Shown: positions 278 through 20,131 of the stretch, piece by piece
Numbering within the stretch: the first letter of the stretch is position 1
Layout: every line of letters starts with the position of its first letter
From: a bacterium
GTDB lineage: Bacteria; SAR324; NAC60-12
Assembly: GCA_965233585.1 (NCBI GenBank)
Contig: CBDDTI010000231.1
Span: 1-29,316, forward strand
Reading direction: 5' to 3'
Length of the DNA stretch: 29,316 nt
Position numbers and translations under genes: made by a program
The notes under the pieces: model-generated
The model's database searches: none
What the model was told of the DNA's origin: nothing
The model's input: the letters and a program-made list of their open reading frames with translations, nothing else

Positions 278-519
278 TGTGAGAATGTATACATGAAAAA
301 AAAATCAATGTATACTTGCTAAAGATGAATTTGAAAGAAGATCACCTGGGACGCTCATTAAATGGTCGGCACTACGATGGGAAATAATTTTTACAACTCC
401 ATGTACAGATAAGTTTGTACATATACACGTGAACACCTAATCGGAATTTTAAAAGGCCGTGCAATTTTTCCCTCTTTTATAGCATTGAGTGACTATCTAT
501 ATGTAATATACTGCTTTGG

Positions 520-1716
520 CAGCTTAAAAGATGATGAAAACGAATTTTGTTGAAAGACTGAATTTTGTTGAAGAATGTTGTTTGTAGGTTAGGTTTGTTG
601 CAAGACCCACTACAAGTGGCCACGGCTGGCGTCACAGCCCCAAGGCTGATGCACCAAGCCCGTTGGCTATTTGGGACCAAATTCGGCAGATTCTTGGTGG
701 ATTTTCAGCGGATTTTTGGCGGATGGGCAGATTTTTGGCAGAATTTCGGCGGATTTTCAGCGGATTTTCAGCGAGATTTCCGGACGATGAGATCTGGACG
801 GTGAGATCCGGATGGCGAGAGAGATCCGGACAGCATGAGATCCTGGACCCGGTGGAGACTCTGGATGACCCCGAGAGGGACCCTGCCAACTCGGTGAGAG
901 AGACCCTGGTCTGCGAGATCCTTTTGGAAAACGAGATCCTACCCTGTGGAGACTCTGCTGACCACCGTGGGGACCCTGCCAACCCTGTGGGGACCCTGCC
1001 AATCCCTTTGCAAACCCCGTGGTAACTCCTGCCAACCACTGTGGAGACCCCGCCAACCATGATGGCGAACCCCATGGGGACCCTGCCAACCCCATGATGA
1101 ACCCCATCAACCCCGTGATGACCCCATCAACCCCAGGATTCAGCTCAAAATGAACCCTGTGATGACCCCATTTCAACTTAAGTTCAAAAGGCTGATGATG
1201 AGGAGTTGAAGAAGAGCTGCCGGATGTGTCTTTCCCTGGTGATCCATCATGAGATTCCAGGTGTGACTTTCTTTAGACATTCATCAGAAGACCCATGGGG
1301 TGCTATTTTTGGAGATTTATTGGAAGAATCCTGGTGTGAACATCCCTGGAGATCCAATGGAAAATAATAATAATGTGTTCAGTGTGATTAAGTACAAATG
1401 ATTGAGCTCGATGTTATTTTGGGAATCCAATGACAACTTCTCCAACAACTTGTGTATGATGTATTTTTTAAGGTATTAATGATCAAACAGACAGTTCAGC
1501 AAGATAAAAAAGATGTTACCTTATTAATAAATATATATGCAAATACTTGAAACATTAACAAATCCTCATTTGCATCTTTACAACTCAAGAGTTAAATAAA
1601 ACAAAATAAGATTATTTCACAGCTTGTTAGTTATCTTTTTCTTCTATTACTCCATCTTAATGGTCAAACAAATCAACTTGGTGATTAATGATCAACATAA
1701 TAATGTTCAGCAAGAT
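520..1716 (+). repeat. Dispersed composite repeat with internal GC-rich minisatellites; left arm of a large inverted pair
   Basis: Co-linear with the reverse complement of ~4190-5279, from CAGCTTAAAAG..TGATGAAAA through ..AATGTTCAGCAAGAT. Internal arrays of GGCGGATTTT, GATCCGGA-type and GGGACCCTGCCAACCC units. Confidence 0.85.
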
Positions 1717-1765
1717 GATTGGCGTTGTTTTCCCCAACGTATGGATACCAAGATACTAAATCTAC

Positions 1766-1885
1766 TTGGTGAAAATAAAGCCTAAGGCATTATATTCACC
1801 AAGAATTTTGGTGAAAATAAGTGCTAGGCATTATTTTCACCAAGGATTTTGGTGAAAATAAGTGCTAGGCATTATTTTCACCAAG
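1766..1885. repeat. ~41-bp tandem repeat made of palindromic units
   Basis: Repeated TTATTTTCACCAA-ggatt-TTGGTGAAAATAA-GTGCTAGGCA, about three copies. Confidence 0.8.
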
Positions 1886-1922
1886 TTCATTAAACCAAGT
1901 TTATACAGTGCTGCTAGGTTGT

Positions 1923-2190
1923 CCAACTAATGATGAGGGGGCAGATTTAAAGCTTTCACCAAGTTGGGGAAGACAGAGGGGAAAGAGAATGCACATGCAG
2001 CACATAAAAAAGAATGACGAAATAACCGGCCAACTAAAGATGAGGGGGCAGATTTCAAACTTTCACCAAGTTGGGGGAGACAGGGGGAGAGGGCAAAGCG
2101 TGCATGCCAGCAGAGTAACTATTATAGTACATAGAGCGCCAACTAAAGATGAGGGGGCAGGTTTCAAACTTGTCACCATGTTGGGGCAGC
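1923..2190. repeat. Three spaced copies of a ~48-bp motif
   Basis: CCAACTAA(A/T)GATGAGGGGGCAG(A/G)TTT..AACTTTCACCAAGTTGGGG near 1923, 2029 and 2139, with a degenerate copy near 2452. Confidence 0.7.
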
Positions 2191-2427
2191 CAACAGCTGC
2201 TAGAGTTTCTACATTAGCTATGCTGTTGGTACAGTAAGACATTCTACAAATTCTGGTTGGATGCAAGTAAATATCTATGGACCTATCTAATATTAATCCA
2301 GCATATCTATGCTGGAATAGGTTATAAGACCATGCAATTTAATCCCACTGTTAACATTGAGTCCAAGTGATCTATGTGATATATCATTGCTCTCGGTTGT
2401 ATCCTTCTAAGATGAAGCCCCACCAGA

Positions 2428-2760
2428 TAGTCTTTGGGCATCAAGCTTCCATTGAGGGGGCGAGATGGTTCAAACTTTCACCAAATTAAGGGGCATTTGA
2501 CAGGGCAAATTGATTTCTCTATATCATAGTGTAACTTTTGGAATAAAGGGCCTAAGAAATTCTATTTTTCTGGTTGATTGCAAGCTATTTGAATAGTTTG
2601 AGATATACTTAATATTTAGGTGAGACATTAACTTTCTAGAATATTTAAGGAGAACCGTTGCATTTGGTTTTCCCTCTAGTTAACTTATTTAGTAAGTGGT
2701 TCCCAATGCCATCTACCTGTGTTATATATCCTGCTTTGGGTTCGTATCAGCTGACACTTC
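2428..2760. mobile_element. Diverged copy of the ~320-bp MITE family also at 25858 and 27520
   Basis: Shares ATAGTCTTTGGG.ATCAAGCTTC, TAACTTATT..G.AAG.GGTTCCCA.TGCCATCTACC and CAGCTGA blocks in the same order. Confidence 0.5.
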
Positions 2761-3016
2761 AAGTGAAGCGCTGTCAATTTGGTGCCTGAGAAGTTGCTCA
2801 ACAGATGGCGTTAAGAATGCCTTATTAATAAGCCACTTCATAAAATGTAACCCCTCATTTTTTCAAGAAAATTAATAAAAAAATGGTAAGAAATAGAACT
2901 GGCTGGTTTGGATTGCTTGGAAGAATAAATATAACAAGAATGAAACCTTCATCTTCAAAAAGTACCAAAATTCAATAAAAAGCAAAGTGCCAATGCCCCC
3001 TAGAAATGGCCCCCTC

Positions 3017-3273
3017 CATAGGCGGACGAGCAAAGGGGGCGGGAGGGGGGCAGCAGCCCCTAGTCTCAAAAATATTTGGGCAAAACGACAAAAATTCGGG
3101 CAAAATGCCAAAATTCGGCCAAAAAAACGTAATTTTTTCAGGCAAACAGGGCAGCAGCCCCCTAGTCTCGAAAATATTCGGGCAAAACGCCAAAATTCGG
3201 CCAAAAAGACGTAATTTTTTCGGGCAAACAGGGTGCCCCCCCCCCCGACTCGGATCGTGCCCGTACTCTTATG
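3017..3273. mobile_element. hAT-like MITE with internal ~100-bp tandem duplication
   Basis: Imperfect TIRs CATAGGCGGACGAGCA / TGCCCGTACTCTTATG. Flanks GCCCCCTC (3009-3016) and CCCCCCTC (3274-3281) give a 7/8 TSD. Two internal copies of GGGCAGCAGCCCCTAGTCTC.AAAATATT.GGGCAAAACG. Confidence 0.65.
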
Positions 3274-3949
3274 CCCCCCTCAGAACTACTAGTAATCCCA
3301 TCTTTTGATTTTTAGTGAAGCTAGAGCATCAAAGAATATTGGACTCTTCAGCTTGGATAAGTAAGAAAAGCAGATTGCAGTTATTTTGTAAAAAAGAAAG
3401 ATCTATTGATTTTACGGGGAGCGGTACGTGGAAATCGCCGGGAATCTGTCAAATCTGACCCCCGACGACCTGATGGGCTGTGGTGCCGGCCTTGGGGCTG
3501 TGATGCTGCCCATGGTGCCGGCAGTGGCACCGGCCATGGCGCCGTCTGGGTTTCGATGTTTCCTCGAATCTGTCAGTTATCCATCAATTTTTAGTCCATG
3601 GGATGAGGCCATCTCCACCTTGATAAAATATCTTAGTAAAAAAAAGTTTGCCTCGAGGATCATTGCCAGGATGATGAGGTCATTTTCCAGGCCAATCCTT
3701 CTTCATTCTGAAAAAGAGTCAGTACAACCTATGAGTGAAGATAGATAATGGGCACATATCAAGTGAAATCAGTCAATGCAAAAGCAGTTGTTTTACCCAT
3801 CCCTGGCATTGTAGACACAAAGCCAATGGTATAAGCTGGATCCACCCTGCCCCACCCTGCCCAAATGTATTCCAAATAATCTTCTTTTGCTTTTATTTAC
3901 CTTTTGAATTGTAAATTTAATGAATGTAAATGTAAGGTAACATCTTTCT

Positions 3950-5279
3950 TATCTTGCTGAACATTAAGTTGATCATTAATCTCATGAATCATCAAGTTGA
4001 TTTGTTTGATCATTAATATGGAGTAATAGAAGAAAAAGATAAGTAACAAGCTGTGAAATAATCTTATTTTGGTTATTTAACTCTTGAGTTGTAGGGATGC
4101 AAATGAGGTTTTGCCCCACATGTATTCCAAATTATCTTATTTTGTTTTTATTTAGCTTTTCAGTTGTAAATGTAAGGTAACATCTTTTTTATCTTGCTGA
4201 ACATTATTATGTTGATCATTAATATCATTAATCACCAAGTTGATTTGTTTGATCATTAAGATGGAGTAATAGAAGAAAAAGATAACTAACAAGATGTGAA
4301 ATAATCTTATTTTGGTTTATTTAACTCTTGAGTTGTAACGATGCAAATGAGGTTTTGTTGATGTTTCAAGTATTTGCACATATATTTATTAATAAGGTAA
4401 CATCTTTTATATCTTGCTGAACTGTTTGTTTGATCATTAACACCTTAAAAAATACGTACATCATACACAAGTTGTTGAAGAAGTTGTCATTGGATTCACA
4501 AAAATAGCATCAAGCTCAATCATTGGTACTTAATCACACTGATCACCTTGTCAAAGCACACATCATTACTATTTTCAATTGGATCTCCAGAGAAGCTCAC
4601 ACCAGGATTCTTCCAATAAATCTCCAAAGAAAGTCACCCCGTTGGTCTTCTGATGCATATCTAAAGAGGGTCACCTGGGATGGACACCATGATGGATCAC
4701 CAGGGAAAGACACATCCGGCAGCTCTTCTTCAACTCTTCATCGTCAGCTTTTTGACTCTAGTTAAATGACCACAGTTCATTTTGTGCTGAAATTGGTTGA
4801 TGGGGTCATCATGGGGTTGATGGGGTCCCAATGGGGTTGACAGGGTCCCCACGAGGTTGGCAGGGTCCCCACAGGGCTGGTGGGGTCGTCACATGGCTGG
4901 CGGAGTTACCACAGGGTTGGGGTTGGTGGGATCCCCACGGGTTGGCAGTGTCCCCAGGTGGTTGGCGGGGTCTCCACAGGGTTGGCAGGGTCCCCAAGGG
5001 GTCAGCAGAGTCTCCACACTAGGATCTCATCGTCCGGATCTCGCCGTCCAGATCTTGCTGCCCGGATCTCGCCATCCGGATCTCCGAAAATCCGCCGAAA
5101 ATCCGCCAAAAATCCGCTGAATCTGGTCCCAAATGGCCAATGGGCTGGTCGCCGGCCTTGGGGCTGTGACGCGGCCGTGACCACTTGTAGTGGGTCTTCC
5201 AACAAGCCAATCTTCAAACAACATTCTTCATCAAAATTTACTCATTCAACAAAATTTATTTTCATCACTTTTAAGCTGT
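3950..5279 (-). repeat. Inverted copy of the 520-1716 composite repeat, with an extra tandem ~240-bp AT-rich unit at 3950-4190
   Basis: Reverse-complement match to 520-1716. ATCTTGCTGAACATTA..GATCATTAA..ATGGAGTAATAGAAGAAAAAGATAA occurs twice in tandem. Confidence 0.85.
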
Positions 5280-5280
5280 C

Positions 5281-6482
5281 TTGACCGCATTCGGCTCTTG
5301 TACCTTTAACGACAAACGGAACATGTGAACTGTCGGTTGACATAGCCTTCTTGTGGGTTTTAATTGTCAAACCAGGCAGATCATACCTGATCCTCTGTCC
5401 TTTGAATTTTCAGACATGATAACGAGGACAATGGATTTTGTGAGGAATGTGCCAGACGTAAGAAACATCTCCACCGGCGTAGTGGCTGTCCTCAGCAGGG
5501 CAGGTTAGCCAGACATTATTTTACTGAGCAATGATGCCGTCGTCATCTCCCCTGGAAATGAACTTCTCATAGCGATAGAGGAGTTCTTCGGTGACGTACA
5601 TGACCATTTGGTCAACCTCGACGCCATTGATATGAAGAGTTCCACCATTACAGGTAATCTGACTGCCGTAGAACCCGGAGTAAGCGTTGGCTGAACCCTT
5701 AGCAAAATAATTAATTTCCTTTTGGACATTCTTAGCTATGCTATAAGTTTTGCCATCACCTGCTCAATATTGGCCCATTGCCAGAGACCGGCACTCATTA
5801 TAGGCCAAAATCTTAGGATGCCGGAAGAAAGTTTCTTGCAGCAAAGGATTGGCATGATCAGCATTTCCACAATTGTAAGTAAGTAAATTGTGAAATATAC
5901 CTTTCGCACCTAGTACCCAGAAACCCTCGTCTCGTATTGGACAATCTGGAATTGAGTAACAGGTTGAATATCATACGTCTCCTTTTCGCTGGCCTCTACA
6001 GGCTCACCAGGATCATGTATGAACAAGCTTACGGGCTTGACATCCATGGGTTTGGAACAGTCGTACCCTGCCAAAAATCGTTAGTTATCTCGAGCCTTGA
6101 GGTTCCGAAGTTGATCTTCGTTAAGCCCAAGTTCGGTTACCGGATCTGGAATAGCTTGGCAGCATTCGTGCAATGCTCTTCGTTCTATAAAGTGACATGT
6201 GGATCTTATAACAAGATTAGGAGATCCAACTTTCGCTAGAACGGTCAGGCCTGTAAACTGTGGAGGATTAAGTGGCTCACGTATCCCGTCAGGGATAATT
6301 GGTGGAAAGAGACTAGAGACAGTTTCTGAAAGAGTTTCCCCTTTTTTGCTCGGAGGTAAAATCTCTAGGGCAGCGACTTGGGGGGACTCTAGGGTAGCAT
6401 CTTGGGATTTGTTAAGTTCACTTACTTGAATTAAGCAGCACAAGATAAAGGACAGGAAAACAAAATACTCTGTCAAGTTCAT
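5281..6482 (-). pseudogene. Decayed chuvirus/Jingchuvirales-like (class III) envelope glycoprotein, 3'-truncated
   Basis: Manual translation: signal-peptide-like MNLTEYFVFLSFILCCLIQVS (ATG 6482) ...KARDN*RFLAGYDCSKPMDVKPVSLFIHDP...TQFQIVQYETR / GTRCERYISQFTY / NCGNADHANP...NECRSLAMGQY*...QITCNGG...LTCPAEDSHYAGGDVSYVWHIPHKIHCP...AECGQ. The GYDC..C..CG..H..C..C.G..C..YVW..CP..CG pattern is what I recognise from chuvirus glycoproteins. It has at least 4 stops and 2 frameshifts. Confidence 0.75.
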
Positions 6483-7425: not shown

Positions 7426-7782
7426 TGTCAAATCTTATACAAGAATAATATTATAGTCGATTTTATGAGATGGCCTTTTCTATCACAGTACTGACCCATA
7501 TATGTTTTTGCCCACCACCTTGATCTAAAAAGAACAAAATTGTGCCCTTGAAAGTAAAATGCTGGCAACGACCCAGATACAGTATGACATTGTAGTTGTA
7601 CAGATTTCTTGCTTTCACTTGTGTTTCTATCTTTAAGTCGTATGGACGTTTTTGTATGAAATATAAGCAGCAATTCTTGGTCACGACAAATTGGATTATA
7701 AGATCATCAGAACATCATTCTCGTTACGTTTACAAGTTCTTCGTGCCGTTCAATTTGTGGACAAGTAATTAGATATATTACA
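7426..7782 (+). repeat. LTR1 (357 bp, TGT...ACA)
   Basis: Starts TGTCAAATC and ends ATATTACA, followed by TTGG. I count 7 substitutions versus LTR2/LTR3. Confidence 0.95.
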
Positions 7783-8273
7783 TTGGTTTATCGTCAACGG
7801 GAAGCAGAGACCTTTTAAGGACCGAGCAGGCGAGCAATCAATCCAATTGAACCAAGGTACTGTTATATAAATTCTGGTGTAGATAGAAATGAATAATCGG
7901 CAGGGTCAGCCAGTAAGAAGGTGGTACAGAGAATCCTATTGCGTCACATGTGGAGATTGGTTCTCAGACATATTGACAAGAAGAATCATACACTTGGACT
8001 GTCCATTGTGTAGACTGATTAGGGGAGAAAATAGGTATTCTTTGTGCTTCGTGCGGAAGGAATCATAAGCATCCTACCTTTTGCATGAGCCCTGGAGATT
8101 TGCCACCTTTACAGTACAATCTACACTACGCCGGAAGAAAACGTGATTAGATGAGTTGAAGATGGAAATGTAAGTCAGATTTAGTGTTAAGACATTCATT
8201 AGTTCATTAGTAATAGGTCAAAAACAATAAGTTATTTTTTGAGAAAAGACAATTAGCATACATTTAGTTCAAA

Positions 8274-9620
8274 ATGGTCAGGACAAGATCAGCAGTGCAT
8301 AATAACCCTACTGTAATGGAGTTGAAGCGTATTGCTAGGGCATCAAGAAGACAAGAATGGCTCAGTTACTATGAGACAATAGAACAGGCCATCAGAGCTG
8401 GCGAAATTAAGGATTATTTCGCTGGGTCAACAGTGGGTGAGGATGAAGATGAACAAGACAGGTTTAAACTTTGCATCCGCCTCCTTTACGGGTTTCCCTT
8501 TGAAGAGTACATCGCCGTTACAAAGGAGGTACCCATTGTTACCCTCCTGATGAGGGAATTAGACAAATCTCTCAACAGGGAGGCATATCCGGGGCAATCA
8601 GAAGCTTTGGTATCTGATTGCACGGAAGAAGAAGTAAAAGGGTTCATGGTGGCCAGGAGAGCTCTTGTCTGCAGCTATCTTGAGAAGCTTCAATCATTTA
8701 GGGAAAAGGTTACAGTACAAGAAAAAGGATGGACCGAGGGTCTAAGCATTTATAAGGCAATGGCCTTGTCCCTTTTTCGAGAGTATTTGGATACTCTCGC
8801 ACATTTGCTGTTCTTGTCAGGAGAAAGTTTAATTAACGCAGTGATAGGACACACACAGTGGGCCAAAGAAAACGTTTTACCTGTAGTGCAAATGCTCATG
8901 ACCGCATTTTGAGATGACAATGTCTCTGCTCCAGTTTTATTTGAGCATTTTCCCGCAGCAGGGGAAACTTTCCTCTCATTTAGATCAACCTTGGAGGACG
9001 AGGTTAAAGAAAAACTCAAGAATGAGGTTAATGAGGAGAAAGTTGAAGGCGCGGCAGCTTTCCATCCAGGAATGTCATCAACCTTGAGGGATAACAAGCC
9101 AGCTCTCGATAAAAAAGATTTGCAGAAACAGCAAAGGTTAACTGCTATCTTTGAAGATGAGGATCTTTCACCGGAGCAAAAGTACTTCATGATGGAGTAC
9201 ATCAGGCAAGCGGATCATGAAGAAGATAATGAAAACTTTGTGACTACAGGAAAATTGGGAGAAGATGAAGACCCCTTAGAAAAGCGTTTTCACTTGCGTT
9301 TAGAAGAGACTGATCATGAACTTTATTCCTCACCCCAACCCCATTCTAGTCAATACCATTCTTTACCAGATGTCAAGCTCCCAAAATTCCATGGTAACCC
9401 CTTAGAATTTCATAAATTTTATTCTATGTTTCTTTGTTTGGTAGATAAGAATCCCAAAATTCCAAAAATCATGAAATTGCATTTACTCAACGATGCTCTT
9501 CGAGGTACAGCAAGCTATCTTACGCACCAGATTACGTATGCGCCGGGCAGTTATGACCAGTTGAAGCATAATTTGTTGCAAGCCTTTGGTGACACGGAGT
9601 CAGCCCTTAGTCAATTGCGA
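8274..9620 (+). pseudogene. gag: Truncated gag with premature stop
   Basis: Same protein as 10462 onward, but with an AGA>TGA nonsense change at 8910-8912 and truncation after ...ESALSQLR. Confidence 0.93.
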
Positions 9621-9970
9621 TCTTATACAAGAATAATATTATAGTTGATTTCATGAGATGGCCTTTTCTATCACAGTACTGACCCATATATGTTTTTGCC
9701 CACCACCTTGAACTAAAAAGAACAAAATTGTGCCCATGAAAGTAAAATGCTGGCAACGACCCAGATACAATATGACATTGTAGTTGTACAGATTTCTTGC
9801 TTTCACTTGTGTTTCTATCTTTAAGTCGTATGGACGTTTTTGTATGAAATATAAGCAGCAATTCTTGGTCACGACAAATTGGATTATAAGATCATCAGAA
9901 CATCATTCTCGTTACGTTTACAAGTTCTTCGTGCCGTTCAGCTTGTGGACAAGTAATTAGATATATTACA
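9620..9970 (+). repeat. LTR2 (5' LTR of the complete element; lacks first 6 nt TGTCAA)
   Basis: Identical to 22455-22806 on manual comparison, except for one A near the 3' terminus. Confidence 0.95.
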
Positions 9971-9971
9971 T

Positions 9972-9990
9972 TGGTTTATCGTCAACGGGA
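9972..9990 (+). promoter_or_regulatory. Putative primer-binding site
   Basis: TGGTTTATCGTCAACGGGA starts 1 nt after the LTR end, with the same sequence at 7784. TGG is complementary to tRNA CCA; I could not identify the cognate tRNA. Confidence 0.6.
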
Positions 9991-10076
9991 AGCAGAAACC
10001 TTTTAAGGACCGAGCAGGCGAGCAATCAATCCAATTGAACCAAGGTACTGTTATATAAATTCTGGTGTAGATAGAA

Positions 10077-10337
10077 ATGAATAATCGGCAGGATCAGCCA
10101 GTAAGAAGGTGGTACAGAGAATCCTATTGCGTCACATGTGGAGATTGGTTCTCAGACATATTGACAAGAAGAATCAGACATTTGGACTGTCCATTGTGTA
10201 GACTGATTAGGGGAGAAATAGGTATTCTTTGTGCTTCGTGCGGAAGGAATCATAAGCATCCTACCTTTTGCATGAGCCCTGGAGATTTGCCACCTTTAAA
10301 GTACAATCTACACTACGCCGGAAGAAAACGTGATTAG
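10077..10337 (+). CDS. 86-aa Cys/His-rich leader ORF (putative zinc-binding protein)
   Basis: ATG in GAAATG context; CVTC..H..CPLC..CASC...HKH...C. The copy at 7889 is frameshifted by an extra A near 8030. Confidence 0.55.
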   Translation: MNNRQDQPVRRWYRESYCVTCGDWFSDILTRRIRHLDCPLCRLIRGEIGILCASCGRNHKHPTFCMSPGDLPPLKYNLHYAGRKRD

Positions 10338-10461
10338 ACGAGTTGAAGATGGAAATGTAAGTCAGATTTAGTGTTAAGACATTCATTAGTTCATTAATAA
10401 TAGGTCAAAAACAATAAGTTATTTTTTGAGAAAAGACAAATTAGCATACATTTAGTTCAAA

Positions 10462-12708
10462 ATGGTCAGGACAAGATCAGCAGTGCATAATAACCCTACT
10501 GTAATGGAGTTGAAGCGTATTGCTAGGGCATCAAGAAGACAAGAATGGCTCAGTTACTATGAGACAATAGAACAGGCCATCAGAGCTGGCGAAATTAAGG
10601 ACTATTTCGCTGGGTCAACAGTGGGTGAGGATGAAGATGAACAAGACAGGTTTAAACTTTGCATCCGCCTCCTTTACGGGTTTCCCTTTGAAGAGTACAT
10701 CGCCGTTACAAAGGAGGTACCCATTGTTACCCTCCTGATGAGGGAATTAGACAAATCTCTCAACAGGGAGGCATATCCGGGGCAATCAGAAGCTTTGGTA
10801 TCTGATTGCACGGAAGAAGAAGTAAAAGGGTTCATGGTGGCCAGGAGAGCTCTTGTCTGCAGCTATCTTGAGAAGCTTCAATCATTTAGGGAACAGGTTA
10901 CCGTACAAGAAAAAGGATGGACCGAGGGTCTAAGCATTTATAAGGCAATGGCCTTGTCCCTTTTTCGAGAGTACTTGGATACTCTCGCACATTTGCTGTT
11001 CTTGTCAGGAGAAAGTTTAATTAACGCAGTGATAGGACACACACAGTGGGCCAAAGAAAACGTTTTACCTGTAGTGCAAATGCTCATGACCGCATTTAGA
11101 GATGACAATGTCGCTGCTCCAGTTTTATTTGAGCATTTTCCCGCAGCAGGGGAAACTTTCCTCTCATTTAGATCAACCTTGGAGGACGAGGTTAAAGAAA
11201 AACTCAAGAATGAGGTTAATGAGGAGAAAGTTGAAGGCGCGGCAGCATTCCATCCAGGAATGTCATCAACCTTGAGGGATAACAAGCCAGCTCTTGAGAA
11301 AAAAGATTTGCAGAAACAGCAAAGGTTAACTGCTATCTTTGAAGATGAGGATCTTTCACCAGAGCAAAAGTACTTCATGATGGAGTACATTAGGCAAGCG
11401 GATCATGAAGAAGACAATGAAAACTTTGTGACTACAGGAAAAATGGGAGAAGATGAAGACCCCTTAGAAAAGCGTTTTCACTTGCGTTTAGAAGAGACTG
11501 ATCATGAACTTTATTCCTCACCCCAACCCCATTCTAGTCAATACCATTCTTTACCCGATGTCAAGCTCCCAAAATTCCATGGTAACCCCTTAGAATTCCA
11601 TAAATTTTATTCTATGTTTCTTTGTTTGGTAGATAGGAATCCCAAAATTCCAAAAATCATGAAATTGCATTTACTCAACGATGCTCTTCGAGGTACAGCA
11701 AGCTATCTTACGCACCAGATCACGTATGCGCCGGGCAGCTATGACCAGTTGAAGCATAATTTGTTGCAAGCCTTTGGTGACACGGAGTCAGCCCTTAGTC
11801 AATTGCGAGAAAGGCTAAATGCTTGGCCTATGATCCCTGAGGATAAGTACACGGATCTCGCAAAATTCTATGGGTTTGCCACTAATTACGTTATGAGCCT
11901 TTTGCAGTATGACGAAGGTGCATCATTTAACGCAAGAGGTACACTTCACGACTTATACTGCAAATTCAATCAAAGTATGAGGCATAACTATCAATGGTCA
12001 TTGGAGCGTGAAGAAACCTTGAAGGGCAAGTTAGCAGATAGAGCGAAGTTGGATTTCATGTTACACTGGTTAGATAAACAGGTTTCAATGGCGAGAACCT
12101 TTTATCATGCGGACCCAAAGAACCCCAAACTTCCCTTGGGAATGCCCTCGGGAATTGCAATGGAGTTTGGGAAGAATCGAGGGAAACCAAACAATGAAAG
12201 GGGTAATGGAAGGGGCGGAGGCTCACAAGCGAAACAGAATTCGGAGCCCATAGACACAACCACGGTTCTTGCGACAGACACGGTTGCCACAAGGGGTGGA
12301 GCAACGCGTGGTGGCCGTGGTAGAGGTAGAGGAAGAGGAGGCACTCGAGGAGCTCGAGGCAGAGGAAGGGGAGGAAGGGGTGGAGGAGGGGGATCTTCGA
12401 CACATCCAGCTACATCGACAATCGATCAATCAGCATCAACGAGTGGTTCAAATGATGATAGGGAAGTTGTTCCTTGTTGTTTTTGTAACAATCCCCGGCA
12501 CAGTTCGCATTTATGCACGCAAAAGATGAAACCCGATACTGTATATATTAAGGCTTTAGAGTTTCAACTTTGTCTTAATTGCTTAAGAGCAGGCCATTGG
12601 GCATCTTCGTGTCCCCATCCGGGATGCGGACGTGATAATTGCAACGGACGACATCATCGTATGATGCATGGCAGATCGAAAGATTTAGCACCCACCCAAA
12701 ATAGTTAG
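10462..12708 (+). CDS. gag: BEL/Pao Gag (748 aa)
   Basis: DUF1759-like LPDVKLPKFHGNPLEFHKFYSMF, an RGG-rich tract, and knuckles CFCNNPRHSSHLC, CLNCLRAGHWASSC and CGRDNCNGRHHRMMH. Confidence 0.95.
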   Translation: MVRTRSAVHNNPTVMELKRIARASRRQEWLSYYETIEQAIRAGEIKDYFAGSTVGEDEDEQDRFKLCIRLLYGFPFEEYIAVTKEVPIVTLLMRELDKSLNREAYPGQSEALVSDCTEEEVKGFMVARRALVCSYLEKLQSFREQVTVQEKGWTEGLSIYKAMALSLFREYLDTLAHLLFLSGESLINAVIGHTQWAKENVLPVVQMLMTAFRDDNVAAPVLFEHFPAAGETFLSFRSTLEDEVKEKLKNEVNEEKVEGAAAFHPGMSSTLRDNKPALEKKDLQKQQRLTAIFEDEDLSPEQKYFMMEYIRQADHEEDNENFVTTGKMGEDEDPLEKRFHLRLEETDHELYSSPQPHSSQYHSLPDVKLPKFHGNPLEFHKFYSMFLCLVDRNPKIPKIMKLHLLNDALRGTASYLTHQITYAPGSYDQLKHNLLQAFGDTESALSQLRERLNAWPMIPEDKYTDLAKFYGFATNYVMSLLQYDEGASFNARGTLHDLYCKFNQSMRHNYQWSLEREETLKGKLADRAKLDFMLHWLDKQVSMARTFYHADPKNPKLPLGMPSGIAMEFGKNRGKPNNERGNGRGGGSQAKQNSEPIDTTTVLATDTVATRGGATRGGRGRGRGRGGTRGARGRGRGGRGGGGGSSTHPATSTIDQSASTSGSNDDREVVPCCFCNNPRHSSHLCTQKMKPDTVYIKALEFQLCLNCLRAGHWASSCPHPGCGRDNCNGRHHRMMHGRSKDLAPTQNS

Positions 12709-12779
12709 GAAATTTCGGGGCTCCCGTCGGACTTACCGGTGGGGGTAAGGGGGCCCTTAGAAAAATGGAAATCCCCTAC
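12706..12779 (+). promoter_or_regulatory. Candidate UAG readthrough signal (stop + 8-nt spacer + stem-loop/pseudoknot)
   Basis: TAG GAAATTTC, then GGGGCTCC (12717-24) pairing with GGGGCCCT (12750-57) and inner CTTACC/GGTAAG. Loop GTGGGGG could pair with CCCCTAC (12773-79). Confidence 0.65.
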
Positions 12780-15700
12780 TGTTAATTCCTGTAATGCTAA
12801 TGTAGTTTTTGATCTTACTAATCTTCATCACAGAACTAATCTTTTCACTAATCTTTCAGGCAGATCTCTGGGAGGTGAGCCTCAATTGGCACATTCTAAT
12901 AAAGTTATACCACAATTGCTCCCCACATTGATGGTTCCAAACCGAACTTCCAAGCATGAAAAATTAAGGGTTCTTTTGGACACGGGTTCCACTTCTTCTT
13001 TCATCACGGCAAAGGCTTTGAAAGGGGTAAGACACGAAACTCTTGATCATAATGTAACTTTGTCCATTAACACGCTTCATGGTACAAATGTACAACAATC
13101 GCGGAAGGTTAGATGCCACGTGAAGGCACCATTCGGTTTTGTCACTTTTGATTGTTTTGTAGTTTCCTTCATAATGGAATTAGATTATGAAAACACACAT
13201 GTCAATAAGGGTCTTTGTAAGAAATTGAATGCCCTTAAATTAAATGAGTCGATCCCGCGGAAGGGAGGTGAAGTAGATATTCTTCTCGGCATCATTGACA
13301 TGTGGTCGATAGTACGAGGTATTGACCAAAGGATCGGCGAATCTTTGGTCATATTGAAAACGGTTTTCGGCCTTGTACCTTGCGGAATGCTACAAGAGCA
13401 ACAAGAGGAACTCGATGTTTTTGTTTCTACGGTGGATCAACTTAACAAGAACATCGAGAGGATGTGGCAGATTGAAGAGCTCCCCAGAGATCAAACGAAC
13501 GAGAAACTCAGCGTGGATGAGATCATGGCTGTGGAAAGTATGTCGAAGAATTTGAGATACAACCCAATTTCTGGTCGTTTCACAACGAGACTTCTATGGC
13601 GAGAAGAACCAAAGTTGGTTAACAATATCGCCTCGGCGAAGGCGCGCCTAGAAGGGCTCATGAGAAGACTTGACAAGGATCCAGGGTTAAAGGACGCTTA
13701 CCTCAAGGCAATGACAGAGTTCATTGACCAAAACACGGTGGAGGAAGTGACCTCGGAGACGATCGAAGAAATGGGTAATTTGGAACGGACCGATCTTTAT
13801 TTCCTTCCCCATAGGGCTGTATACGATCCCACACGCGTCAGCACAAAATGTCGCATTGTGTTTGACGCTTCGGCAAAAACCCCGTCTGGGTTTTCCTTAA
13901 ATGATTCCCTATTGGCAGGACCCCCTCTTCAACAGGCAATAGTTGCTGTTGAACTACGATTTCGCACAAGGAAAATTGCACTTATAGGCGATATCAGCAA
14001 AATGTTTTTGCAAATAGAGGTGGATCCTGAAGATCGGAAGTATCTTAGATTTTTGTGGCGGGATCCGGAAGATCCCAAAGCCCTCACCAAAGTTTATCAA
14101 TTTAGGACTTTGATCTTTGGTGCGGCAGACTCTCCTTTCCAGGCCATATCTTGCTTGCAACAGCTTGTTAAAGACCGGTTGTTAGAGGCAGGCCTCACGA
14201 CCTTTGAAAAAAGGGCGTGTGATACCATCCTGAAGGACACATATGTAGATGATGTCACCACTGGGGGTGCATCCGTAGAAGAAGCCTTTCGTATGTTTGT
14301 TGAGCTATCCAAGTTGTTAGGTAGAGGTCATTTTCAAATCCGTAAATGGGCGACTAATTCGCCAGAGCTCCTTAAGATGATTCCTAAGGAGGCTCGAGCA
14401 CCCACGACGACAGAGGAGGAGGATAGTTCTTTGTTCTTAAGCGAAGAAACCTCTTCATTAGGGATACGATGGGATCCTTCAAAGGATATCTTTATCTTTA
14501 GACATTATTGCAATATGGCAATTCATAATGATGATACAAAGACTTCCGTAGCCAGTTTGCTTGCTAGACCTTTTGACCCTTTGGGGCTTATCTCTCCTTT
14601 CGTTCTTCTTGCAAGGAAAATCTTGAAGAAAACATTTGAGGAGAAGATAAATTGGAAAAGTTCACTACCCCAAAATTTGCGCACCGAATGGCACCGGTGG
14701 CTTGAAATGCTTCCAGAATTGAAAGATGTGACGTTTCCTAGATATGTTGAATTTAATGAATCTACTGAATTACATATCTTTGGCGACGCATCTGCAAATA
14801 TGGGTCATGGGGTTGCGGCATATGCACGGACGTTTAATAAGGATATTAATTGTTATGAGTCGAATTTGCTGTTTGCCAAGTCTAAGATTAATCCCACTAA
14901 GGAAATCTCTGTGCCCCGTTTAGAACTAGTGGCTGCACTTTTGTGTGCAAACATAGCTGAAATGTTAAAAGAAGAACTGGATTTTCCAAAGAACCGGATC
15001 TTTTGTTATTCTGATTCCGAAACGACATTGTGGTGGTTAACAAAAAAGCCGAATTCTTTGTTACCCTTTGTTGCTAACAGAGTACAAAAGATTCAGGAAC
15101 TTGGGTATGTTTTCCAATACGTGAGCACGCAGTCAAACCCAGCGGACATAGCGAGCCGTGGGTGTGCTCCACACGCATTAACAAGGACTCTTTGGGCAAG
15201 AGGGCCTAATTTTTTGCGCCTCTCGCGAGAGGATTGGAAAATACCCAAGGTGGATTTCTCTAAGGTGGACAAGTTGCAGGAGGTTAAGAAACAATATGTT
15301 TATAATCACTTGACAATTTGTAAAACCTATGAAGAGTTTCCACAAAATATGATGGTAGTCAATATGGCAGACTACTATAGTGACCACGATTTACTTCTGA
15401 GGAAAACCATGTTGGTCATGGAAATCGTGTCAGTTTGGAAAATCAAGGCGTTGCAGAAAAAATCAGCTATGTTGGATGTCAATAAAATATCGCATCATAA
15501 AAATCGAGCGCGACTTTATTGGATCAAACAGTCACAATATGCACATTTCGCTGAAGAGATCGAAAATCTAAAGCGGGGACAAGATATTCCAAGGCACTCT
15601 AAACTCTTACCATTGAACCCGCAATTGGATAAAGAGGGAGTGCTCAGGGTGCATGGTAGATTAGTTGAGGCCCCACTTTTGGAGTTTGAAAGATTTCCAA

Positions 15701-16884
15701 TCATCCTTCCAAAAGGACACGGATTTGTCACCTCACTTATTTTGAAAATTCACTTAGACAATCAACATTCTCCTGTTGATTGGACACATTTTCATCTGAG
15801 GCAACAATACTGGATTATGTCCAGTAGACTTCAGATAAAAAGTGTTTTGAGGAAATGTTTGGAATGCCAAAGATCAAATGCGAGGAGAGGTCAGCAGATC
15901 ATGGCTCCTCTCCCTATAGTCAGATTAAAATATTCCCCTCCATTTACTAAAGTGGGAGTGGATTATACGGCAAAATTTCAAATTAAAATGACTATGAGAG
16001 CAAGGAATTCGCAACCTTGCTATATGGTCATATTCACTTGTCTTATTACTAGGGCGGTTCACACCGAGCTAGTTCTCTCAAATGAAGCTGAAGACTTTTT
16101 ACTTGCATTACGGCGTATGATGAGTGTAAGGGGGGTTCCAGCCCATTTATACTCAGATAACGGCCTTTACTTCAAAAAGGCCGATAAGGAATTAAAGGAA
16201 ACTATTGACCTTAATAATGAGATTATTAAGGACGCCGCGGACAAGTATGAGTTTCAGTGGAGCTACTCTACGGAGCTTCATTCCGCTGGAGGAGGCATTT
16301 GGGAGAGGGCAGTGAAGCTCATTAAGGTTCCTTTAAGGAAATTAATAGATAAGTCAGAGGTGATGACTTATGTTGATTTTCTGACCTTGATGAAAGATGC
16401 AGAGGCGCAAGTTAATGATCGCCCTCTGCTTGCCGTTTCTGAAGAAGCATTTGACGTGATTACTCCTTCCATGCTTTGCCTTGGAAGACGTATTCGACTA
16501 TGGAGGGATTACTTTTCTGAGACTGAATGTGATGACTCTTCTGACGTAAGGCTCCGTTGGGAGCAACGTCAAAATTTGTCTCAGGAATTTAAGAAGTTGT
16601 GGACATCACAATACCTCACTCAACTTCATTCCCGCCATAGATGGTTTTCTAAACAACCTAACTTGAAGATTGGTGATTTGGTGTTAATTGAGGAACAAAA
16701 TAGGAAGCAGTATCAATGGCCACTTGCCAGGGTATTTAGGATAATTAAGGGAAAAGACGGACGGGTTCGAACGGTTCTTTTGCGGTCCAAAAATTCCAAG
16801 AAAATATTAAAACGAAGCATTCATGAGATATTTCCGTTGGAGGCTTGCAGGGACCATGAGCTCGACCAAACCCCTTCTTCCTAA
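12709..16884 (+). CDS. pol: BEL/Pao Pol: aspartic protease, reverse transcriptase, RNase H, integrase
   Basis: LLDTGSTSSFI (12979); YFLPHRAV..KCRIVFDASAK; YVDD (14242); LHIFGDAS, PRLELVAA, YSDS, NPADIASRG; H..H..CLEC, GVDY, YSDNG, WERAVK; C-terminal WPLARV..GKDGRVR. The frame is open from the codon right after the gag stop. Confidence 0.97.
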   Translation, partial: EISGLPSDLPVGVRGPLEKWKSPTVNSCNANVVFDLTNLHHRTNLFTNLSGRSLGGEPQLAHSNKVIPQLLPTLMVPNRTSKHEKLRVLLDTGSTSSFITAKALKGVRHETLDHNVTLSINTLHGTNVQQSRKVRCHVKAPFGFVTFDCFVVSFIMELDYENTHVNKGLCKKLNALKLNESIPRKGGEVDILLGIIDMWSIVRGIDQRIGESLVILKTVFGLVPCGMLQEQQEELDVFVSTVDQLNKNIERMWQIEELPRDQTNEKLSVDEIMAVESMSKNLRYNPISGRFTTRLLWREEPKLVNNIASAKARLEGLMRRLDKDPGLKDAYLKAMTEFIDQNTVEEVTSETIEEMGNLERTDLYFLPHRAVYDPTRVSTKCRIVFDASAKTPSGFSLNDSLLAGPPLQQAIVAVELRFRTRKIALIGDISKMFLQIEVDPEDRKYLRFLWRDPEDPKALTKVYQFRTLIFGAADSPFQAISCLQQLVKDRLLEAGLTTFEKRACDTILKDTYVDDVTTGGASVEEAFRMFVELSKLLGRGHFQIRKWATNSPELLKMIPKEARAPTTTEEEDSSLFLSEETSSLGIRWDPSKDIFIFRHYCNMAIHNDDTKTSVASLLARPFDPLGLISPFVLLARKILKKTFEEKINWKSSLPQNLRTEWHRWLEMLPELKDVTFPRYVEFNESTELHIFGDASANMGHGVAAYARTFNKDINCYESNLLFAKSKINPTKEISVPRLELVAALLCANIAEMLKEELDFPKNRIFCYSDSETTLWWLTKKPNSLLPFVANRVQKIQELGYVFQYVSTQSNPADIASRGCAPHALTRTLWARGPNFLRLSREDWKIPKVDFSKVDKLQEVKKQYVYNHLTICKTYEEFPQNMMVVNMADYYSDHDLLLRKTMLVMEIVSVWKIKALQKKSAMLDVNKISHHKNRARLYWIKQSQYAHFAEEIENLKRGQDIPRHSKLLPLNPQLDKEGVLRVHGRLVEAPLLEFERFPIILPKGHGFVTSLILKIHLDNQHSPVDWTHFHLRQQYWIMSSRLQIKSVLRKCLECQRSNARRGQQIMAPLPIVRLKYSPPFTKVGVDYTAKFQIKMTMRARNSQPCYMVIFTCLITRAVHTELVLSNEAEDFLLALRRMMSVRGVPAHLYSDNGLYFKKADKELKETIDLNNEIIKDAADKYEFQWSYSTELHSAGGGIWERAVKLIKVPLRKLIDKSEVMTYVDFLTLMKDAEAQVNDRPLLAVSEEAFDVITPSMLCLGRRIRLWRDYFSETECDDSSDVRLRWEQRQNLSQEFKKLWTSQYLTQLHSRHRWFSKQPNLKIGDLVLIEEQNRKQYQWPLARVFRIIKGKDGRVRTVLLRSKNSKKILKRSIHEIFPLEACRDHELDQTPSS

Positions 16885-16946
16885 CGGAAGTCTATTCTAC
16901 TCTGACAGTTATCCTTATGGTCAAGAAAGTTTGTTTCACTTTCTTA

Positions 16947-17150
16947 CACCTGGTTGACATATTGTCACCTGGGTGACATACTGCGGTCTATTGTAAATAC
17001 GCAAGATTAATTGCGTCTTAAATAGTTTCCTGTTTGCGCCAAAAACTTTTTTCCACCAATCAGATTCAAGAATTTATCTGTGGTTCCAAGAAAGTGAAGC
17101 CACCAGAATCGTATAAATAGCGCGAATTTTCATCTACTTTCATCACTTGG
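16947..17150 (+). promoter_or_regulatory. Internal RNA Pol II promoter
   Basis: Tandem CACCTGG(T/G)TGACATA (16947, 16966), CCAATCAG (17056), TATAAATA (17112-17119), Inr-like TTCATCACTT about 30 nt downstream, and first ATG at 17217 in GAGATGG context. Confidence 0.65.
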
Positions 17151-17216
17151 ATTCGCACTGCAGTTGCGAAAGGATTGCATTTAAAACTAACATTCCTACA
17201 ACATTCAAATAAGGAG

Positions 17217-17528
17217 ATGGCTGGATTTCTCCTTCCCTTAATAATGGACCTCGTGGGAGGAGGACTGGGTGGAATAGGAGGATCAATTGGAGGATCAACG
17301 TTTGGACCCGCGGAGCTGTCGTCATCAGCTCAGGATACGTCGGCGGACTCAAACGTTTTTAACACTCAAGGGCCTTCGGCTAATCACGGGTCGATTAGCT
17401 TTAATTTTCATGTTAATAATGAAAATTTTTCTACTCCGTTGGGAAACAGTCGAGGGGATCTTCTGGTCAACAGGCGGACGACTTACTTCAACAAAATGAG
17501 CTCCTCAGACGAATTATTGGTAAGATAG
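17217..17528 (+). CDS. Accessory segment A (103 aa if unshifted), hydrophobic Gly-rich N-terminus
   Basis: MAGFLLPLIMDLVGGGLGGIGGSIGG... Contains an in-frame A AAT TTT slippery heptamer at 17423-17429. Confidence 0.6.
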   Translation: MAGFLLPLIMDLVGGGLGGIGGSIGGSTFGPAELSSSAQDTSADSNVFNTQGPSANHGSISFNFHVNNENFSTPLGNSRGDLLVNRRTTYFNKMSSSDELLVR

Positions 17529-17936
17529 CTCCTAGTATCATACCAACTGGATCGAGGAGGAAGCGATCAATCCGGCCAAGAAGACCTTGGGTGAGGTGTT
17601 TTCGACCCTCACGACTTTGTCCACCGAGGCATTTTGGATTGCCTTACGTTGCACCTAAGCCTCTGGTTGACGGACCACCCTTGAGAAGATTTAATGCTAG
17701 TTCTCCTCTACTGATCAATCAACCGCCTATTCCTGTCCTCCGGGCGAAGCAAGCGTATGCAAAAAGGATTTCTGGACTTTTGGAAGAATATCATTTGGGC
17801 ATCTACAAAGAAGAAAAGAAGAACCCTCTTCCAAAGTCGTTTCAACTGGCGCTCTCGAAGTATTATGGATTGAAACCTCTTACGGACTCCCTTGAAAACG
17901 ACTCTAAGATTACACCTCAAATTGAAATCATTGAAG
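17423..17936 (+). CDS. Accessory segment B (-1 frame relative to A; no ATG)
   Basis: Open from 17423 (after TGA 17420-22): KFFYSVGKQ..DDLLQQNELLRRIIGK..SRRKR/SIRPRRPWVRC.. Ends at donor AG|GTAAAT (17937). Confidence 0.55.
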
Positions 17937-17996
17937 GTAAATAAAGAGCTCCTTTCTTCTGAAACTTTGGTATTTAGTTGTTGGTTTTCCTTTTAG

Positions 17997-18619
17997 ATGG
18001 AAAAAAGGTTCATAGTAGGAGAAAAAGGCAGACAAAAGGATTTATCATGCCTGTTCAAGCCGTGAAAGCCGTTATTGCTACGGCTCATTTGGACCAACTC
18101 CTCTATGACAAAATCATGCGTAACGCGGAGTATACGGATTCCAAGATCGTTAATGACTATCTGGATGATTTCTTCGCGATCAACCTGGCCAAGAGATTAC
18201 AACCTATGTTCGTACCACTTGACCATACGAAATTTCCGGAACAAATAGGCAAGGCGGTGTCGTTGGCAACTTTGAAGCTTACAACGGTGGCACGTTGCAG
18301 GATGCTTTACTCCACCTATCCCTGTGAGGATTTGTTGGTGGAGGACAAGAGGACGTGTGCTGCAGCTGGAATTTATACGTGTCACAGTCGTTCGTCACCA
18401 CCACCCGGATACGAGTATGGAACTTGGCGAGTGTACGATCAGTTGAAGGCCCAGGTTGCCGCCAACAGGATGTATCAGGCGGATAAGCATGAACCAACTC
18501 TGATTTTAGAAGAAAGGGAGCTGTCAAGGGAGAAGAGAGGTGCTTGGAAGGTGCCAAGGTATCGTCCCAGGAGGAAGAAACGTCCGTTTATGCGCAAATC
18601 GATCAAGATCGAAGAGTAG
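17997..18619 (+). CDS. Accessory segment C
   Basis: Follows acceptor TTTTCCTTTTAG (17996); removing a 60-nt intron joins B and C in frame. Contains RRKR/Q, a 4-Cys cluster and REKR/G. Confidence 0.6.
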
Positions 18620-18966
18620 TTCGTCCAGTCGTCGAACCAAACTTCAAGTCATGAAGACCTTGGGGGCGGGATCGAGTGTAGGTACGAGTTTGGGAGCAGG
18701 AAAGGTGCGTCCTGGAGCTGGGGCTGGAATGTTTAATACGCTCAGCATTCAGGACATGAGGAGGATGAATGCCGGACCACCAGCTTTGAGAAATCGTGCG
18801 GCAAATCCACATCCCATTACTGCCGCGGGAGTACATGTTGGTTACTCCTCTCCTGTCTCACTCACAAATTTACGCGCTCGATCATCTTCGTTGGATTCGG
18901 TTCGACAAAGTCCTACTCTGGTTCGATCTCCTTCATCATCTTCGATTTCGTTTCAAACGGCGCGAG
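18600..18966 (+). CDS. Accessory segment D (Ser/Arg/Gly-rich)
   Basis: RSRSKSSSSSRRTKLQVMKTLGAG...SSSSISFQTAR, ending at donor AG|GTAGGG (18967). How it joins to C is uncertain. Confidence 0.45.
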
Positions 18967-19010
18967 GTAGGGAAGCCTCTCAATCTTTACTCCTGTTGTT
19001 CCTCAACCAG

Positions 19011-20131
19011 TTTCTTCACTGGCTGCATCGTCGGCACCAAGATCTGGGTGGCATGATATGCCTCCTTTGGAGCCACCATATGCCTACTCACCAAGAGGGT
19101 ATCGACCTGTCCCGGCCAGAAGAAACCTCATCGGGGATCAAGCCTTAACTAGATCTAATTCTATTACCTCGTTGGACTCCAGCGTTAGTTCCAGCATGAC
19201 CGATTCAAGACCACCCACTCGTCTTACTAATGAACAGGGTTCTTTCTTGCCACAAGTTAGGGAGGACTTCAAAGTTCACAATCGGGTGGGAGATGCATAC
19301 CGGATTTATAAGGAAAAGCATCCTTATAAAGTCAAGGCTGGAAAATATGTTGGAGGGGGTATCGCGGCTCTTGGCTCCTACATTGCGGCCTCGCAAATCG
19401 ATAGGGCCATCCAACGCACTCAAGATAAGGCTGACGACAAGACCCATGAGAAGTATGCTAATGAGACAGCAGTTTTGGAGGCGGACCTTTTTAAGGAAAA
19501 ACTTGCAAATGAACGCTTTAAACAACAAAGCGAGTTTGCCTCCAAAGTTCTGTCTGACGCCATCTTGACGGGACAAATACCGACGGAATTGGTGAATCAT
19601 GTTGTGCCGAAGATGACAGTGCAAGAGCCAGTGAGGGAGGAACCGGGGACTTGGACGATGATCGACAGGACAGAAGACCCCTTGCGTCAACAAGATACGT
19701 CAAGAGGTCTCGCACCCAATGTAACAGAGTTGATTGTAGATCATGTCCAGCGGAATGAAAAACAGGTTGAGAAAATGTTAACTCGGAGAAAAGAGTTGAT
19801 ACTTCGAGAGGAAGAAGAGGAGATGCAACAGCCAAAACAAACACTTAGCGCCTTGGATCGTTTAAAGCAGCGAGAACACTTTCATTTTGAACTGCCGGAG
19901 CGAGAGAGAAGCCCGCGCGCTTTACCACATAACTGGGAAGAACCGGGGACACTGGAGTCGCACAAGAAAATTGTGTTGGCTTGGTGTGTGGGGTCTGCGA
20001 TTTTCGCAAGTACTCTTTGTTTTATCTCAGTAATGTGGTCAAAGTGCCGGTGCTGCTGCAGGAAACGGGTTAAAAAACCCACTCCTGTAGACGCTTCGGT
20101 AGAGCCACTTGAACTTGAACCGTTGAAATAA
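19011..20131 (+). CDS. Accessory segment E: coiled-coil-like region with C-terminal transmembrane helix and Cys cluster
   Basis: Acceptor CCTGTTGTTCCTCAACCAG (19010); hydrophobic YVGGGIAALGSYIAA; NETA and NVTE sequons; TM IVLAWCVGSAIFASTLCFISVMW followed by KCRCCCRKRVKK. Confidence 0.7.

Follow-up and report, generated by a model that had tools for sequence, protein, structure and literature searches.

The window, a stretch of 29,316 nucleotides (nt; contig CBDDTI010000231.1 of assembly GCA_965233585.1), contains an env-bearing long terminal repeat (LTR) retrotransposon of the BEL/Pao type (Belpaoviridae) that spans positions 9620-22806, about 13.2 kb. Its gag and pol genes lie in one reading frame separated by a single UAG codon, and comparison of sequences makes it likely that programmed readthrough of this inherited stop produces Pol as a Gag-Pol fusion. 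The element has a single stop, conservation of that stop across its clade, a covarying stem behind it, selection on the linker that follows and no usable start for Pol. On a wider scale, we lean slightly toward the view that the Belpaoviridae evolved programmed gag-pol readthrough at least three times. In this view, a large env-bearing clade, which includes the element and is probably cnidarian, fixed it ancestrally and later switched between a gammaretrovirus-like signal made of a G, an 8-nt spacer and a stem (after UAG or UGA) and a tobamovirus-type one made of CAR-YYA and a long-range stem, and two unrelated lineages use UGA-CUAG. The arrangement appears to be clade-wide, with the type of signal changing within the clade. 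If this is true, three textbook signal classes all occur within one retroelement family.

The stop codon that separates gag from pol

The features of the junction, all on the forward strand, were as follows.

10462-12705: gag, 748 amino acids (aa), with DUF1759 (PF03564, E 1.6e-8) and C-terminal Cys-His knuckles, the last of which ends at 12669
12706-12708: single in-frame TAG, the gag/pol boundary
12709-12716: 8-nt spacer, GAAAUUUC
12717-12757: predicted bulged stem-loop (outer helix 12717-12725/12749-12757, inner helix 12733-12737/12744-12748, loop 12738-12743)
12773-12780: possible pseudoknot partner of the loop (candidate)
12709-16884: pol, 1,391 codons, with a coding linker, protease, reverse transcriptase (RT), Peptidase_A17, integrase and DUF5641
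12979-12981: codon of the protease catalytic Asp

The junction reads AAT AGT TAG GAA ATT TCG GGG, and its TAG is the sole stop (codon 749) in a frame of 2,140 codons (10462-16881). It lies 12 codons beyond the last knuckle His and 91 codons ahead of the catalytic Asp. An earlier reading, made from the letters of the window and hereafter called the sequence-only reading, had described a single in-frame UAG between the last zinc knuckle and the protease in a gag-pol frame of this length, and these results bore it out. It had also counted 8 nt after UAG-G. A spacer of 8 nt is present, but the G is counted inside it and the stem starts at +9.

The stop was found at the end of gag in all eight clade copies of the window's assembly (G000) whose junction could be read. 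Two of these, C68 and C640, are 62% identical to the window copy in Gag and 88% identical in Pol, and the three have gag-pol frames of 2,140-2,152 codons with one internal stop, a TAG at the same site. In the other five copies (C212, C523, C328, C58, and C193), gag ends in TGA. The frame from the stop to the protease was open in five of the eight copies and broken by frameshifts in C212, C523, and C328; protein records from other copies of the C212 and C328 families start inside the junction peptide and enter the protease in the frame of the stop, and for C523 the junction frame was deduced from its relationship to C212. The assembly also contains two BEL copies of different kinds, C218 and C683, in which the frame is open across the junction and has no stop. 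Conservation of the UAG, which the sequence-only reading had proposed as a check, was thus seen as a stop kept family-wide, and the clade yielded neither a sense-codon nor a fused form.

Protein records extended this pattern. Among the best 120 of 264 Pol homologues, each of these 120 with PF05380, none of the closest 38 carries a Gag knuckle or a Gag Pfam domain, and a knuckle is present in 64 of the next 82; the lengths searched (765-2,435 aa) covered fused forms. A Gag profile search without length limit gave, among P0227-P0311, 36 matches with a complete last knuckle, all of which end at most 38 residues after it, 29 of them within 20 residues, and long or fused forms began only at E ~5e-14. 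In a separate Gag search, limited to 411-1,309 aa and so by its range unable to show fused forms, 15 of 22 proteins end 6-12 residues past the last knuckle, as does one more judged by eye; five end before the knuckle and one has 35 residues beyond it. A quick RT tree of 99 rows, which held no named reference elements, grouped 37 of the 38 Pol proteins with the eight clade copies (SH-like approximate likelihood ratio support of 89, no bootstrap); the remaining protein, P0035, was too short in this region and was left out. Since all eight clade copies stop at this site and none of the 38 closest Pol homologues carries Gag, the stop is inherited rather than a product of decay.

The element was found in four sequencing runs of one study, with no RNA run listed. 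In contigs of these runs, none of the 40 best-supported differences (of 157) falls at 12706-12708 and one falls within 12700-12760 (at 12726, in the bulge); rare sense-codon copies are conceivable among these contigs. One low-depth contig skips 12565-12705, and the ends of the skip are not splice-like. Outside the window's assembly, no clade DNA was found among viral contigs or, with the Gag alignment, in genome contigs, where Pol gave seven distant loci. A distant match occurred in one of 100 related genomes. Metagenome contigs yielded at least 80 distant BEL loci (28-33% identity), which were taken as a control set.

The downstream stem and other signals of the family

The two stems that the sequence-only reading had proposed, of 8 and 6 base pairs (bp), were located at 12717-12724/12750-12757 and 12732-12737/12744-12749. 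C523 can be aligned gap-free with the window/C68 group over the 16 codons that follow the stop. In a four-row alignment with C212, 94.5% of cells were paired, compared with 53-73% in slid registers, and four of 14 pairs were changed on both sides, two in each helix; an insertion or deletion in the 3' arm of C212 puts two of its cells out of register. Thirteen pairs are canonical in the window, C68, and C523 together, four of them with double changes. Controls were 1,199 ungapped 51-nt windows of pol from the window, C68, and C212 (mean identity 0.67, vs. 0.66 at the junction, where C523 replaced C212 in the three-row comparison). None reached 13 pairs, the maxima being 10 pairs and three double changes. 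Codon shuffles of the junction reached 13 pairs once in 1,000 and never with four double changes. The check on stem covariation across relatives therefore came out positive, with four pairs changed on both sides between subfamilies. A search of Rfam, with matches accepted to E 10, returned no gag-pol readthrough family and just two chance snoRNA matches.

Two other properties of the junction were conserved. The +1 G and +2 A of the spacer are common to the window, C68, C640, C212, C523, and C328, and the linker is under purifying selection as a protein, because pN was 0.16 and pS 0.47 over its codons 17-51. Separately, a family at about 49% Pol identity (P0194-P0196) starts with a peptide that aligns in register with the junction peptide of C523, which suggests that it has the same stem.

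The likeness to gammaretroviruses appears confined to the context of the stop and the geometry of the signal, as opposed to its sequence or a proven fold, because the pseudoknot was at chance level and the spacer is largely unlike that of Moloney murine leukemia virus (MuLV). Of the features of a type III signal, UAG followed by G and an 8-nt spacer with a helix from +9 are present; the 8-nt spacer of MuLV is likewise counted to include the G after the stop in the available text of a 2026 readthrough review (PMC13517186). The purine-rich type III spacer (G1, G2, G5, U6, C7, A8) is not found: GAAAUUUC matches MuLV at G1 and U6, with G2, G5, C7, and A8 absent, and the type III hexamers given in that text do not include UAGGAA (PMC13517186). 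The G-rich loop had been proposed to pair with CCCCUAC, which does occur at 12773-12779. However, the best downstream partner of the loop was equaled by 131, 34, 328, and 322 of 1,000 shuffles in the window, C68, C212, and C523, respectively. The partner keeps its position in C68 and lies 22-26 nt farther in C212 and C523. The pseudoknot is therefore unsupported beyond chance in three of four sequences; it is possible, and the readthrough reading does not need it.

Other members of the clade carry a different signal. The junctions of C58 (TGA-CAA-CCA; stretch L005, G000:C58:25803-25930) and C193 (TGA-CAA-CTA; stretch L006, G000:C193:21277-21400) both fit the type I motif CAR-YYA, but with UGA instead of UAG as the stop. 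According to the available text of the 2026 review, this motif works with all three stops and the type I signal has not been found in animal viruses (PMC13517186). Both copies also have a predicted 14-bp stem from +7 that closes a loop of roughly 85 nt (z over 130 nt, -2.7 and -2.4). The stem arms are 92% and 97% identical vs. 60% for the loop, and the 3' arm doubles as coding sequence for conserved protein. This long stem resembles the extended stems described for alphaviruses (PMC3159437, in part).

The junction could be read in 66 of the 80 distant BEL loci. Of these, 59 lack a stop within 45 codons, two have a stop in a shifted frame, and in five an in-frame stop precedes 100 or more open codons. 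Each of the five reads GCA-TGA-CTAG (L027:5853-5859, L028:5853-5859, L031:3127-3133, L033:468-474, and L015:1308-1314). UGA-CUAG is a known leaky context (PMC10085805, in part), and its presence at all five sites supports the view that a BEL stop at this place goes with such a context. L015 on the one hand and L027, L028, L031, and L033 on the other come from other samples and occupy two places in the tree, each next to a fused relative and apart from the clade of the window; they look like independent gains of readthrough.

Readthrough and competing explanations

In the mechanism we propose, a minority of ribosomes would read through the UAG to make the Gag-Pol fusion and most would stop after Gag, with Pol kept at a few percent of Gag. 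The stem at +9 would sit at the mRNA entry channel of the ribosome and delay termination, by analogy with MuLV and alphaviruses, and a near-cognate tRNA would decode the stop during the delay. In MuLV, the 8-nt spacer positions the structure at this channel (PMC3159437 and PMC13517186, both in part). Sister families would do the same with UGA and this stem, or with UGA-CAR-YYA and a long-range stem.

Several observations weigh against this interpretation. The hairpin alone was no more stable than shuffles (z -1.16 for 52 nt, and -0.19, -0.32, and +0.78 for three longer stretches), so the evidence for the stem is comparative; the presence and coordinates of the two proposed helices stood, but a stability beyond chance did not. 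A rival hairpin (12720-12746) prevails in an 80-nt fold; it is compatible with C68 and, judged by eye, out of register in C212 and C523. The four double changes separate two subfamilies, so they are not independent events and may lie on one branch. Conservation of synonymous sites at the junction between the window and C68 was modest (12 of 14 vs. 8.0 expected, p ~0.02), and the 24-codon junction window ranks 86th of 2,094 in this respect. C328 has TGA-G and an 8-nt spacer followed by a different predicted stem of 12-13 bp from +9 (z -1.9). Most of the clade is known from proteins alone, and a frameshift junction would likewise yield separate Gag and Pol records. Finally, the architecture of the Tca2 element shows that such an outline can mislead: no readthrough was obtained in yeast with its UGA, spacer of 8 nt and predicted pseudoknot, as far as the available text reports (PMC2194720).

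It is improbable that Pol comes instead from a spliced message that lacks the stop, or from a separate pol message, with the stem serving another purpose such as packaging. An acceptor-like site (pyrimidines and CAG) does occur, at +151 for the window and at +148 for both C68 and C640, and the leader has a strong GTAAGT donor (10357-10364) that is kept in C68 and might serve as the main donor of env or accessory transcripts. However, the stretch that would have to be an intron is the one under protein selection, which disfavors splicing. The sole phase-matched GTRAG donors in gag lie in unrelated places (10625 in the window and 503 nt into gag in C68), C193 lacks a phase-matched acceptor-like site ahead of the protease, and splicing leaves the leaky-stop motifs directly behind the stop unexplained.

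About as doubtful, or a shade more so, is termination at the stop with Pol started afresh downstream by reinitiation, internal entry or an internal promoter. There is a precedent in Tca2, where translation of yeast reporters began at an in-frame AUG located in the loop of the predicted pseudoknot (PMC2194720, in part), and the loop of the window element holds an in-frame GUG; this codon is GAG in C523 and C212. The first in-frame Met of pol is codon 75 after the stop in the window, with the catalytic Asp 91 codons from the stop. The corresponding values are 74 and 90 in C68 and C640 and 50 and 52 in C58 and C193, and a start at that Met would be expected to remove the beginning of the protease fold.

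Editing of adenosine to inosine, which would turn the stop into a Trp codon in part of the RNA, is very improbable. Only UAG and UGA occur at the site (8/8), each one edit from UGG, and one predicted fold pairs the stop with a downstream CCUA, but edited genomic RNA would enter DNA as a sense codon and the fused form was found in none of eight copies and none of 38 Pol homologues. A nonsense mutation in a dead copy has next to nothing in its favor although many copies in the window's assembly are decayed: it is refuted by the conservation of the stop at the same site despite 62% Gag identity, by frames of about 2,150 codons with no other stop in three copies, and by separate Gag and Pol records clade-wide. 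A reassigned genetic code was rejected since both TAG and TGA occur at the junction with no further stop in frame.

Programmed readthrough remains the best explanation. The sequence-only reading had called it convergent with MuLV, and an origin independent of gammaretroviruses does appear to follow from the placement of the element among BEL/Pao elements. Its UAG-G and 8-nt spacer held up; its pseudoknot was unsupported beyond chance in most sequences, and a close match to MuLV was not supported.

The element, its setting and known systems

The remaining features, all on the forward strand, are listed below.

7426-9619: tandem partial copy, consisting of an extra LTR (7426-7782), leader and 5' part of gag; 98.4% identical, ending before the junction
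9620-9970: 5' LTR, with its initial few bases replaced by the tail of the upstream gag fragment
9972-9989: primer-binding-site position, beginning TGG
17121-20131: accessory reading frames without a Pfam family, in several pieces in the window copy
20406-22277: env-like gene, baculovirus F family (PF12259, E 2.1e-14)
22437-22448: purine-rich tract ahead of the 3' LTR
22449-22806: 3' LTR

The LTRs are about 355 nt long, and the 5' LTR is 100% identical to 22455-22803, within the 3' LTR, over 349 nt, indicating a young insertion. The best match to the primer-binding site was tRNA-Thr (14/18) among the 217 tRNAs of an assembly that holds just part of the host. The family criterion for the primer of Belpaoviridae is tRNA-Arg or tRNA-Gly. 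The site is unlike that of C68 and C640, and the primer tRNA may have changed within the family. The tandem partial copy has a premature stop in its gag part and joins the element at a short common GTCAA; no target-site duplication was seen at the outer flanks of the arrangement, which is possibly a product of recombination or an assembly chimera.

Two stretches of pol (about 13010-13100 and 14140-14240) have nearly every synonymous site in common with C68, up to 24 of 24 and exceeding the junction; they may be recombination tracts or further RNA elements. The accessory frames have relatives in C68 and C640, and the longer frame is in three pieces in the window, owing perhaps to frameshifts or to short introns. 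At the same position, C212 has a Thr-rich frame of 1,061 aa. A long interrupted inverted repeat with 20-nt tandem units (500-5300; arms about 527-1716 and 3982-5272) and a second inverted repeat (25847-27851) are possibly remnants of DNA transposons. The window's assembly comprises 12 Mb, whereas its listed prokaryote kin mostly comprise 3-5 Mb, which makes it likely that a large part of it is host DNA. The sole named protein in the clade comes from an octocoral.

A gag stop with a readthrough-like signal was not found described for BEL/Pao elements. Searches of the literature for Belpaoviridae with readthrough and for Pao with an in-frame stop and read-through, which covered few subscription papers, returned nothing, and no title on this topic appeared among further literature listings. 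The term "stop codon" does not occur in the available text of De la Chaux and Wagner (PMC3118150), and neither "retrotransposon" nor "Belpao" occurs in that of the 2026 review (PMC13517186). The available portions of PMC554778, PMC5408684, PMC5009743, and PMC2678813 held nothing further on the subject.

To our knowledge, readthrough of a gag stop has been firmly proven only for gammaretroviruses and their kin. The silkworm BEL element Kamikaze was reportedly listed with a stop between gag and pol by Gao et al. in 2003; if so, this would lower the novelty of the stop-separated layout and not that of the stem or the clade-wide pattern. If our interpretation is true, the clade offers, in an animal retroelement, a natural and independent series of readthrough signals that includes a new covarying stem. 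Such a series is relevant to the questions of which properties of the +9 structure are important for readthrough and how signal classes interconvert, and stop-containing copies of the clade should not be annotated as dead.

The element agrees with the profile of the Belpaoviridae (PMC8742986) in its LTRs (within 0.2-1.2 kb), the Cys-His knuckles of Gag, the order of protease, RT, RNase H and integrase in Pol, an env-like gene, and a polypurine tract of about 10 nt (22437-22448) before the 3' LTR. Its placement rests on BEL- and Pao-specific Pfam domains, namely DUF1759 in Gag and Peptidase_A17, DUF5641 and the integrase zinc domain in Pol (PF03564, PF05380, PF18701, and PF17921), and on the baculovirus-F-like env at the 3' end. 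It differs in that the profile gives continuous or overlapping gag-pol only and genomes of 4.2-10 kb, whereas this element has an in-frame stop, extra frames and about 13.2 kb.

Conserved in-frame stops between gag and pol, with no AUG for Pol, are also found in the Ty3/gypsy elements Tj1, Tcry1, and Tosmo1-3 of fission yeasts, and in Tj1 the stop is required for transposition. These elements are fungal, lack env and use UGA-CU, and a downstream structure is unmentioned in the available text of both sources (PMC4600332, PMC10085805). Tca2 of Candida albicans (gag-UGA-pol) likewise has a stop, a spacer of 8 nt and a predicted structure at its gag-pol junction, but it gave no readthrough in yeast reporters and has an AUG in its loop, which this element lacks (PMC2194720, in part). 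The type I signal of tobamoviruses and the type II signal of alphaviruses (UGA-C with an extended stem) correspond to the UGA-CAR-YYA and stem of C58 and C193 and to the UGA-CUAG of L015, L027, L028, L031, and L033, although those systems are RNA viruses (PMC3159437 and PMC13517186, both in part). Moloney MuLV, in the same two sources, shares with the element an in-frame UAG-G between nucleocapsid and protease, an 8-nt spacer and a G-C-rich helix from +9. It belongs to another virus family and has an H-type pseudoknot, in contrast to the bulged two-helix stem supported here, and the element further differs in its approximately 90 linker codons before the catalytic Asp and in having sister families that use UGA.

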